Shown here piece after piece: positions 15,198-16,334 of a DNA stretch of 64,000 nt. The translations under genes were made by a program, and so were the position numbers. The stretch is from an uncultured Rickettsiales bacterium (GTDB lineage Bacteria; Pseudomonadota; Alphaproteobacteria; Rickettsiales; SXRF01). Position 1 is the first letter of the stretch. Each line of letters opens with the position of its first letter. The DNA lies in the NCBI GenBank assembly GCA_964575095.1, contig CAZNPA010000006.1, positions 8,361 through 72,360 on the forward strand, in the 5' to 3' direction. A model generated the notes under the pieces. The model made no database searches. It was not told the origin of the DNA and saw only the letters and a program-made list of their open reading frames with translations.

Positions 15198-16334
15198 ATG
15201 GCAAAGAACAAAAAACACTACGCTTTCCACCAGCGGCTTGCCCGCTGGTATGAAGCGAACGGCCGCAAGACATTGCCGTGGCGCACGACGCGCGACCCTT
15301 ACGCCATCTATGTCAGCGAAATCATGCTGCAGCAGACGCAGGTCAAGACCGTGCAGGAGCGCTATTATTTCCAATTCCTGAAGCGTTTCCCGACGTTAGA
15401 AGCTCTGGCGGCGGCAAAACGTCAGGATGTGCTCAAAGCCTGGCAGGGGCTGGGGTATTATAACCGCGCCGTGAATTTGCATGAAGCGGCGAAGCAGATA
15501 ACCGGGATTCGGGATTGGGGATTAGGGATTGGGGAAAGGCAGAAGAGGAATATTCTTCAAACCCGAAGCCCGAACCCCGAATCCTTAATCCCGACTTTAA
15601 TGTCCCTGCCCGGTATCGGCCGCAATACCGCCCATGCCGTGGCCGCGTTTGCCTACCACACGCCGGTGGCGGTGATGGAAGCCAACGTCAAGCGCGTGCT
15701 GTCGCGGATATTTGCGCTAGAAAACCCAACCGCGGATGCATTGTGGGAACATGCGACGGCGCTGCTCGATACCAAGAACCCGTTCGATTACAATCAGGCG
15801 ATGATGGATATCGGCGCGATGGTTTGCACCAAGCGCGCGCCAAGATGCAAAGAGTGCCCGGCGAATGCAATCTGTGCGGGCACGGCATCGCCTGAATCTT
15901 ATCCGGCGGCCAAGATCAAAAAAGCAACGCCGGTGCGAAAGAAGTATATTTTCCTGCTGCGCAATAACGCGGGAGAATATTTCGCCGAGCCGCGGAAGGG
16001 GAAATTCTTGAACGGCATGTATGGCTTTGTTGAAAAAAATATCTGCTCCCCCCTTGAGGGGGAGCGGGCGAGGACAAGCGATAGCGATGTTCGAGCCGTG
16101 GGGGGTAAGGTTTGCGCTTCGCGCAACACCCCTCTCCCTAACCATCTCCCTCAAGGGGAGAGGGAATATTTAGGCGCCATCCGTCAGCAATATTCGCATT
16201 TTACGCTGGAGGCGGAGGTGTATCTTCAAAAAGCGCAAGGCAGCGGCAAGGATTGGCACTCCTTTTCAAAGCTAAAAAAGTTTCCATTCTCTATGGCAGA
16301 ATTAAAAATCTTGAAGTTACTGGAAGCGGCATGA
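15198..16334 (+). CDS. mutY: A/G-specific adenine DNA glycosylase carrying two in-frame palindromic insertions
   Basis: Contains LPWRTTRDPYAIYVSEIMLQQTQV, the HhH motif LPGIGRNTAHAV, the FeS cluster motif CTKRAPRCKECPANAIC and a C-terminal NUDIX-like domain. Confidence 0.9.
   Translation: MAKNKKHYAFHQRLARWYEANGRKTLPWRTTRDPYAIYVSEIMLQQTQVKTVQERYYFQFLKRFPTLEALAAAKRQDVLKAWQGLGYYNRAVNLHEAAKQITGIRDWGLGIGERQKRNILQTRSPNPESLIPTLMSLPGIGRNTAHAVAAFAYHTPVAVMEANVKRVLSRIFALENPTADALWEHATALLDTKNPFDYNQAMMDIGAMVCTKRAPRCKECPANAICAGTASPESYPAAKIKKATPVRKKYIFLLRNNAGEYFAEPRKGKFLNGMYGFVEKNICSPLEGERARTSDSDVRAVGGKVCASRNTPLPNHLPQGEREYLGAIRQQYSHFTLEAEVYLQKAQGSGKDWHSFSKLKKFPFSMAELKILKLLEAA
15502..15594. repeat. Imperfect palindrome with GGGATTN heptad periodicity, inside mutY
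   Basis: CCGGGATTCGGGATTGGGGATTAGGGATTGGGG ... CCCGAAGCCCGAACCCCGAATCCTTAATCCCGA. Translated in-frame it gives GIRDWGLGIGERQKRNILQTRSPNPESL. Confidence 0.75.
16045..16163. repeat. Nested-palindrome element, copy 2 (in-frame inside mutY)
   Basis: GCTCCCCCCTTGAGGGGGAGCGGGCGAG ... GAGCCGTGGGGGGTAAGG ... CTCCCTCAAGGGGAGAG. Read in-frame it gives SPLEGERARTSDSDVRAVGGKVCASRNTPLPNHLPQGER. Confidence 0.85.

Follow-up and report, generated by a model that had tools for sequence, protein, structure and literature searches.

The mutY gene in the window, that is, the whole 64-kb stretch of DNA that was analysed, carries two different palindromic repeats inside its reading frame, and this raises the question of whether a DNA-repair gene with two such inserts still encodes a functional MutY or whether its host could be a mutator. 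The coordinates of the gene, of its catalytic and structural residues and of both inserts are collected in Table 1.

Table 1. Features of mutY and its two inserts (positions are those of the window; residue numbers are those of the mutY product).
Feature	Position	Strand	Remark
mutY coding sequence	15198..16334	+	378 codons and TGA, open throughout
Catalytic Glu codon (E41 = Gs MutY E43)	15318..15320	+	by alignment to Gs MutY
Insert 1, left G-rich arm (units GGGATTC, GGGATTG, GGGATTA, GGGATTG, then GGG)	15504..15534	+	reads G-I-R-D-W-G-L-G-I-G
Insert 1, loop (AAAGGCAGAAGAGGAATATTCTTCAAA)	15535..15561	+	reads ERQKRNILQ; low-confidence helix in model
Insert 1, right C-rich arm, decayed NAATCCC units	15562..15593	+	reads T-R-S-P-N-P-E-S-L-I-P
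HhH motif LPGIGRNTAHAV (L137-V148)	15606..15641	+	intact
E161-A162-N163, at the canonical catalytic D-G-N position	15678..15686	+	by alignment
Fe-S cysteines C210, C217, C220, C226 (Cx6Cx2Cx5C)	15825..15875	+	invariant
Insert 2, nested GC-rich palindrome including AT-rich ends	16037..16171	+	translated core 16047-16163 (S284-R322, 39 codons)
Insert 2, left terminal mini-hairpin GCTCCCCCCTTGAGGGGGAGC	16045..16065	+	reads S-P-L-E-G-E
Insert 2, right terminal mini-hairpin TCTCCCTCAAGGGGAGA	16145..16161	+	reads L-P-Q-G-E
Y332-S333-H334, equivalent to the F-S-H loop that recognises 8-oxoG	16191..16199	+	invariant in 120 orthologues

The product was identified as MutY by TIGR01084 (E 1e-80) and by Pfam HhH-GPD (E 8e-19), together with a weak match to NUDIX_4 (score 27.3 vs. 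35). The frame is open from end to end with both inserts in place, as the preliminary description had reported. The mutY stop codon overlaps the ATG of a downstream gene encoding an FAD-dependent oxidoreductase (ATGA, 16331-16334), and the gene order GDSL lipase, mutY, FAD oxidoreductase was also found in L120 and L122.

The first insert is an inverted repeat whose two arms (15503-15534 and 15562-15593), composed of GGGATTN and NAATCCC heptads, are 78% complementary. The pattern GGGATTNGGGATTNGGGATT gave 4 matches in the window vs. 0 in shuffles, and the RNA fold of the insert has an energy of -43.6 kcal/mol (z -4.2 vs. shuffles). The preliminary description had placed a palindrome of GGGATTN heptads in frame ahead of the HhH motif, and both arms and frame were recovered here: the translated part (15504-15593) covers 30 codons, G103-P132 (GIRDWGLGIGERQKRNILQTRSPNPESLIP), and LPGIGRNTAHAV follows directly. 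Compared with the DNA of the nearest orthologue with an empty site, P0003, 102 nt stand where 36 nt (R-C-A-G-S-L-P-D-S-V-E-E) were, and since this ancestral 36-nt loop is no longer present, the net gain is only 22 codons. The native segment is regarded as ancestral because its length and pattern match those of Geobacillus MutY (G-G-K-V-P-D-D-P-D-E). In the model of P0003, a coil at 100-107 occupies the place of insert 1 and is followed by a five-residue HhH helix 1 at 108-112, and in the model of the window MutY, the element-coded P-E-S-L-I-P starts HhH helix 1 (H127-135) as an N-terminal extension.

The second insert, with arms at 16037-16063 and 16145-16171, is a repeat of the nested GC-rich family inside the NUDIX-like domain, in agreement with the preliminary description, which had estimated about 40 added codons. 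It is a hybrid copy, combining an A-type left half with a B-type (GGTTAGGGAG) right half. Its family motif had 14 matches in the window vs. 0.04 expected and gave 21 BLAST hits in the genome, and its RNA fold reaches -71.2 kcal/mol (z -5.9 vs. shuffles). On the minus strand the left terminal mini-hairpin is followed by a T-run and is terminator-like there; a search of the mutY hairpins for a sense-strand intrinsic terminator found none. Relative to P0003, the 135-nt palindrome stands in place of 30 nt, so that with the loss of this ancestral sequence the net gain is 35 codons. The Y-S-H loop begins 10 residues beyond the end of the insert.

To place both inserts in their genomic context, the two repeat families were followed through the host genome (1.80 Mb, 10 contigs, 100% complete, 56% GC, metagenome-type assembly). 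The heptad family comprises about 18 paired copies of the form (GGGATTN)3-5, a loop of 20-100 nt and (NAATCCC)3-5, in addition to about 8 solo arrays; the nested family comprises about 14 full copies and is modular, with half-elements A, A' and B in combination. Long ORFs cross many copies, and Pfam confirmed the hosts as real genes. In-frame hosts of the heptad family are nadC, uvrA, sucA, purL, murD, ybeY, alaS and an exonuclease-III-like (xth-like) gene, and those of the nested family are dsbD, lipB and genes encoding a class-III aminotransferase and a 2-oxoacid dehydrogenase E2; for hemB and ETF-QO, the heptad element may lie only upstream of the true start. At least 9 of the about 18 heptad pairs are in frame within Pfam-supported genes; in ybeY and murD, native codons are enclosed between the two arms of the pair. 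About 15 genes, mutY among them, have in-frame elements, and since both families are read in frame in many other genes, mutY is no exception.

The encoded peptides are uniform, G-I-R-D-W-G-L-G...S-P-I-P-N-P for the heptad family and S-P-L-G-G-E...P-Q-G-G for the nested family. For the heptads this uniformity follows from the unit length, since 7 = 1 mod 3 and an array therefore reads the same in any phase. The idea that the repeats are "frame-proof" was rejected, as a whole element has on average 1.5 of its 6 frames open, about as many as expected by chance. Heptad arrays were present in 17 of the 26 genomes of the family, with the largest balanced load in the host genome. A search for a Y1/RAYT transposase (PF01797) gave no match in this 100%-complete genome, while control genomes responded, and a search of the elements against Rfam returned nothing near any gathering score.

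To determine whether the two segments belong to MutY itself, as they would if relatives without the repeats conserved them, the 120 nearest MutY orthologues were aligned, and most of them lack both; neither segment is conserved MutY sequence. Site 1, from GYYxRA to G-I-G, measures 25 residues in 111 of the 120 orthologues, and site 2, from the strand ending at F277 to Y-S-H, measures 17-32 residues in almost all of them. At site 1, P0001, P0002, P0004, P0007, P0008 and P0056 carry a heptad palindrome, and these bearers are scattered on the tree. In the five bearers whose DNA was read, the 3' junction is identical, with CTAATCCC(G/T) and a single codon ahead of Leu-x-x-LPGIG, and none of the five retains the ancestral segment. 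A single ancestral heptad insertion was considered and discarded, because one clade of bearers is rejected (AU test, p-AU 8e-66) and the native segment is ancestral; at least five lineages, which cannot be joined in a single clade, thus share a mutY junction occupied by heptad palindromes. P0004 and P0022, for example, are 86% identical, and P0022 has a native site 1. Hairpins unrelated to the heptads were found at site 1 in G034 (z -10.3), G012 (z -3.4) and G030 (z -2.8), while a native site is unstructured (z +0.6). At site 2, at least four peptide types occur across the relatives, and about seven changes are needed on the tree. Both mutY sites are therefore insertion hot spots for hairpin repeats. 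The replacement of ancestral codons, the recurrent hot spots and the about 15 invaded genes are points beyond the preliminary description.

The explanation that we favour, and hold to be likely, is that passenger hairpin repeats were fixed in permissive loops of mutY and are translated there while MutY stays active. Two non-autonomous hairpin repeats from two dispersed families would have been fixed in frame in insertion-tolerant loops. At site 1, opposed (GGGATTN)4 arrays with a short loop would have replaced the surface coil before HhH helix 1, with PESLIP of the right arm supplying a substitute start for this helix; at site 2, the modular nested palindrome would have replaced the short linker that joins two strands in the 8-oxoG-recognition domain. 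Both elements would be transcribed and translated as floppy excursions. Insertion would take place genome-wide, with selection retaining only the frame-keeping copies in permissive loops, and this filter is proposed as the reason why the same two mutY loops gather hairpins in many lineages; selection, rather than targeting, would then account for the recurrence.

Comparison of P0001 with P0002 gives a result that does not follow directly from passenger repeats. P0002 shares 74% identity and has both inserts at identical junctions, and a clade of P0001 and P0002 is not rejected (p-AU 0.63), so that their divergence post-dates both insertions. Between the two, the gene core has a dN of 0.18, a dS of 1.0 and a dN/dS of 0.18, vs. 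a dS of 0.14 and a dN/dS of 1.4 for element 2. Third positions are identical in 87% of cases in element 2 vs. 60% in the core (Fisher p 0.0007), and fourfold sites in 17 of 19 vs. 70 of 108 (p 0.03). Judged from these substitution patterns, the low dS of element 2 would not be predicted by a pure passenger model, and its conservation could reflect selection that acts on the hairpin or, alternatively, gene conversion from other copies in the genome.

One reading that draws on this result, which we regard as rather unlikely, is that the repeats are directed to particular places by templated, homing-like or conversion-type copying, with the hairpin itself under constraint. Neither repeat family was seen at both mutY sites, the heptads with at least five entries at one junction of site 1 and never at site 2 and the nested repeats at site 2 only, and such family-specific use hints at targeting, since a simple permissiveness filter does not predict it. 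The overwriting of ancestral codons, the bracketing of native codons in ybeY and murD and the dS contrast of element 2 point in the same direction. With respect to microhomology as a cause of the recurrence, only 1 of 15 native site-1 sequences is within one mismatch of CTAATCCC; CCGGATTCGG, which agrees with the array at 9/10 positions, is present at the empty site of P0003 but absent from the sister of P0004. Sliding identity of the P0004 gene against its sister and the other bearers showed raised divergence beside the junction and no clear donor of an insert-bearing patch. If directed copying were true, its mechanism would be one that is undescribed for bacterial protein-coding palindromes.

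It is improbable that selection maintains the hairpins in a co-opted role, whether this role is played by the nucleic acid (through mRNA stability, pausing of translation, an antisense transcription block or a G-quadruplex/hairpin switch) or by new protein loops. The conservation of element 2 above the core at third positions and fourfold sites, with a dN/dS of 1.4, is what such selection could leave, but gene conversion by other genomic copies could explain it equally, and the element 2 peptide is unconstrained. In the same way, the arms of the L122 insert have their own unit variant (GGCATT/AATGCC) and are still complementary (z -7.7), which would be consistent with a maintained structure, whereas the right arm of insert 1 has decayed to the partial complementarity given above. 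The terminator-like hairpin on the minus strand and the formation of a G4 by (GGGATTG)3GGG in vitro (PMC4692102) would offer possible functions; against these stand the absence of any insert from most orthologues, the presence of unrelated hairpins at the same sites and the low confidence of the encoded peptides in the model.

Returning to passenger repeats in permissive loops, the activity of the enzyme is the remaining point. The preliminary description had suggested that MutY might be impaired and the organism a mutator, and this suggestion finds no support in the residues, fold, substitution rates and genome composition. All residues invariant in the clade are kept in the window MutY (E41, N163, D204, the four Cys, L137-G141 and Y332-S333-H334); E41, N163 and LPGIG align to Gs MutY (Gs E43, N146) and are invariant in the 120 orthologues. 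The GPD motif has a Glu (E161, in E-A-N) where Gs MutY has its catalytic Asp D144 and Ec MutY D138, and this Glu is present in 120 of 120 nearest orthologues, vs. D-G-N in 63 of 70 distant MutYs; E161 keeps the carboxylate and is a trait of the clade that is unrelated to the inserts. The AlphaFold model of the window MutY keeps the MutY fold (mean pLDDT 88.2, pTM 0.83), and the only blocks of low pLDDT, 101-130 (62, 53, 75) and 281-320 (67, 49, 43, 57), are the two inserts; for P0003, with empty sites, the mean pLDDT was 95.8. Foldseek matched the window model to two-domain Geobacillus MutY-DNA complexes with a target-normalised TM of 0.81, and both insert excursions are predicted to point away from the DNA. 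A dN/dS of 0.18 at a dS of about 1 indicates strong purifying selection on the insert-bearing mutY, and fpg is intact in the host genome. On this basis of residues, substitution rates and structural models, MutY with both inserts is likely to be functional and would retain its enzymatic activity.

That the inserts cripple MutY, by disturbing DNA binding at the HhH, 8-oxoG recognition or both, and give rise to a G:C to T:A mutator is accordingly very improbable, even if several points speak for it. Insert 1 stands where the coil and the first residues ahead of HhH helix 1 were, and the Y-S-H loop lies very close behind insert 2, but the frame is open, every invariant residue is present and the fold is preserved in the AlphaFold model. 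The window MutY, with 270.9 bits, misses the TIGR01084 equivalog cut-off of 286.5 bits. This shortfall tracks the inserts, since the insert-free P0003 (305.5) and P0022 (302) pass and the insert-bearing P0002 (276.9) and P0004 (283.1) fail, the exception being P0005 (274.8), which is below the cut-off without inserts. mutY is also dispensable in the family, as it is absent from G011, G024 and G022, and a mobile element in the mutY of Elizabethkingia does give a mutator (PMC5458099). On the other side, the core of the gene has evolved under low dN/dS since both inserts were acquired, and the same families lie in alaS, murD, sucA and purL, genes that must work. The GC content of 0.561 falls in the upper half of the range of the relatives (0.43-0.61), where the three relatives without mutY are lowest (0.43-0.47), a comparison of 20-kb samples that is crude, non-independent and suggestive.

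That the inserts arose as artefacts of assembly or binning, through repeat-induced chimeras of a gene that lacks them, is hardly credible even for a metagenome-type assembly of 10 contigs in which both inserts are repeats, since both keep the frame, the same two are found in frame at the same junctions in the independently assembled P0002 (74% identity, two other sequencing runs), and four more orthologues from other samples have heptad inserts at site 1.

Taken as passenger repeats, the two inserts have consequences beyond this gene. A DNA-repair gene that looks invaded is, according to its residues and model, very probably functional, which would remove the mutator alarm, and automated annotation may miss mutY only because the inserts push its score under the family cut-off. 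The mechanism is ordinary for the host genome, and the interest lies in two MutY loops being colonised repeatedly and in a family-specific manner, with native codons overwritten. mutY is also a natural experiment, in which two loops were hit independently by several hairpin families and close relatives with empty sites exist, and its comparison bears on targeted vs. filtered insertion and on the tolerance of a glycosylase beside its DNA-binding motif. With these elements, translated selfish palindromes of the Rickettsia type are known from a further alphaproteobacterial lineage and also among repeats built as heptad arrays.

Among known systems, the mutY elements behave like the Rickettsia palindromic elements RPE-1 to RPE-10 (Ogata et al. 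2000 Science 290:347; 2002 Genome Res 12:808), a likeness of behaviour that does not place them in RPE families. As far as the summary in PMC10969869 describes them, RPEs are likewise dispersed palindromic repeats of about 100-150 bp in an alphaproteobacterium with a small genome, with many copies in frame in unrelated housekeeping genes, no obvious transposase, and translation as a conserved peptide at fold-compatible places. The differences are that the host is not Rickettsia and has 56% GC, that the sequences are presumably different, that one family of the mutY genome consists of heptad arrays whose arms can bracket native codons (ybeY, murD), and that the mutY inserts overwrite ancestral loop codons and hit the same codon positions repeatedly in separate lineages.

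G-rich heptameric repeats have been described as GGGNATC in Xanthomonas and GGGGA(T/C)T in Nostoc PCC 7120 (Rehm et al. 2015, PMC4692102), the former with 70-75 convergent pairs forming inverted repeats, and both under-represented in coding regions and mostly near gene ends. The unit in the mutY genome is identical to that of Nostoc, as (GGGATTG)n = (GGGGATT)n, and the preference for about four units, the frequent convergent pairs and the capacity for G-quadruplexes are shared with both systems, whereas at least 9 of the about 18 heptad pairs of this alphaproteobacterial host are in frame within genes. Like REP/BIME (PMC3733652), the repeats are short, GC-rich, multicopy palindromes, and the mini-hairpins at the ends of the nested elements are REP-like; unlike the extragenic, RAYT-mobilised REPs, many of the repeats lie within genes of a genome in which the Y1 transposase gene was not found. 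In Elizabethkingia anophelis, the 63-kb ICEEa1 in mutY truncates the protein and shifts the mutation spectrum, yielding a mutator (PMC5458099). Both cases have mobile DNA inside mutY, but here it consists of two small in-frame repeats in a gene whose protein is whole and which is under purifying selection.

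Both loops of mutY that carry repeats in the window, the one before the helix-hairpin-helix motif (site 1) and the one in the C-terminal domain (site 2), hold other inserts in relatives. At site 1, unrelated hairpin-forming inserts were found in three relatives (loci L107, L106 and L101 in genomes G034, G012 and G030, respectively), of which that of G034 forms an almost perfect palindrome of 80 nt (folding z-score against shuffled sequence, -10.3). At site 2, the inserts of the orthologues P0017 and P0031 terminate in W-I-P-A-x-x-G-M-T, a separate repeat-encoded peptide type, and a further type, GGRxGGG...PLxGE, is common to P0009, P0010 and P0013.

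The positions of heptad palindromes in the same genome (G000) and of the other features are listed in the table. In ybeY (L006) and murD (L005), about 30 codons of conserved native protein sequence lie between the two arms of the heptad "palindrome", and each arm replaces a variable loop, indicating that one arm can be inserted at a distance from the other. DNA-repair genes (uvrA, an xth-like gene and mutY) make up 3 of the 9-11 genes hosting a heptad palindrome in frame, a post hoc comparison on small numbers. In another lineage, a solo C-rich heptad array was also observed in thiC, beside a mutY that itself bears heptads (P0008).

Coordinates of heptad repeats and of features in and around mutY
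Feature	Gene	Location
In-frame heptad palindrome	uvrA	G000 C1:365430-365517
In-frame heptad palindrome	xth-like gene	G000 C9:44573-44652
In-frame heptad palindrome	mutY	window 15504-15593
Heptad palindrome	ybeY	G000 C3:147059-147210
Heptad palindrome	murD	G000 C2:302832-302977
Solo C-rich heptad array	thiC	L171:7904-7923
Glu-Ala-Asn codons	mutY	window 15678-15686
Terminator pattern match	antisense to mutY	window 16045-16065, minus strand
ATGA overlap	mutY/oxidoreductase	window 16331-16334

Antisense to mutY, a terminal mini-hairpin of the site 2 nested element, together with the AGATATTTTT that follows it, matches the intrinsic-terminator pattern. Downstream, the start of an FAD-dependent oxidoreductase gene overlaps the mutY stop, as it also does at two relatives' mutY loci (L120 and L122), suggesting that the two genes are co-translated.

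In the family members G011, G024, G022 and G020, mutY was not found and only Nth-like matches were obtained. In 20-kb samples, GC was lower in the first three (0.465, 0.431 and 0.432, respectively) than in any other family member sampled, with G020 an exception (GC 0.572, genome 92% complete); G009, which shares its genus with G022, does carry mutY, and its GC is 0.523.

In the alignment, Glu-Ala-Asn (E161-A162-N163) occupies the position of the catalytic Asp-Gly-Asn of canonical MutY, as throughout this MutY clade (all 120 nearest orthologues, and also two Sulfurovum MAGs); Asp-Gly-Asn is retained in 63 of 70 more distant MutYs.
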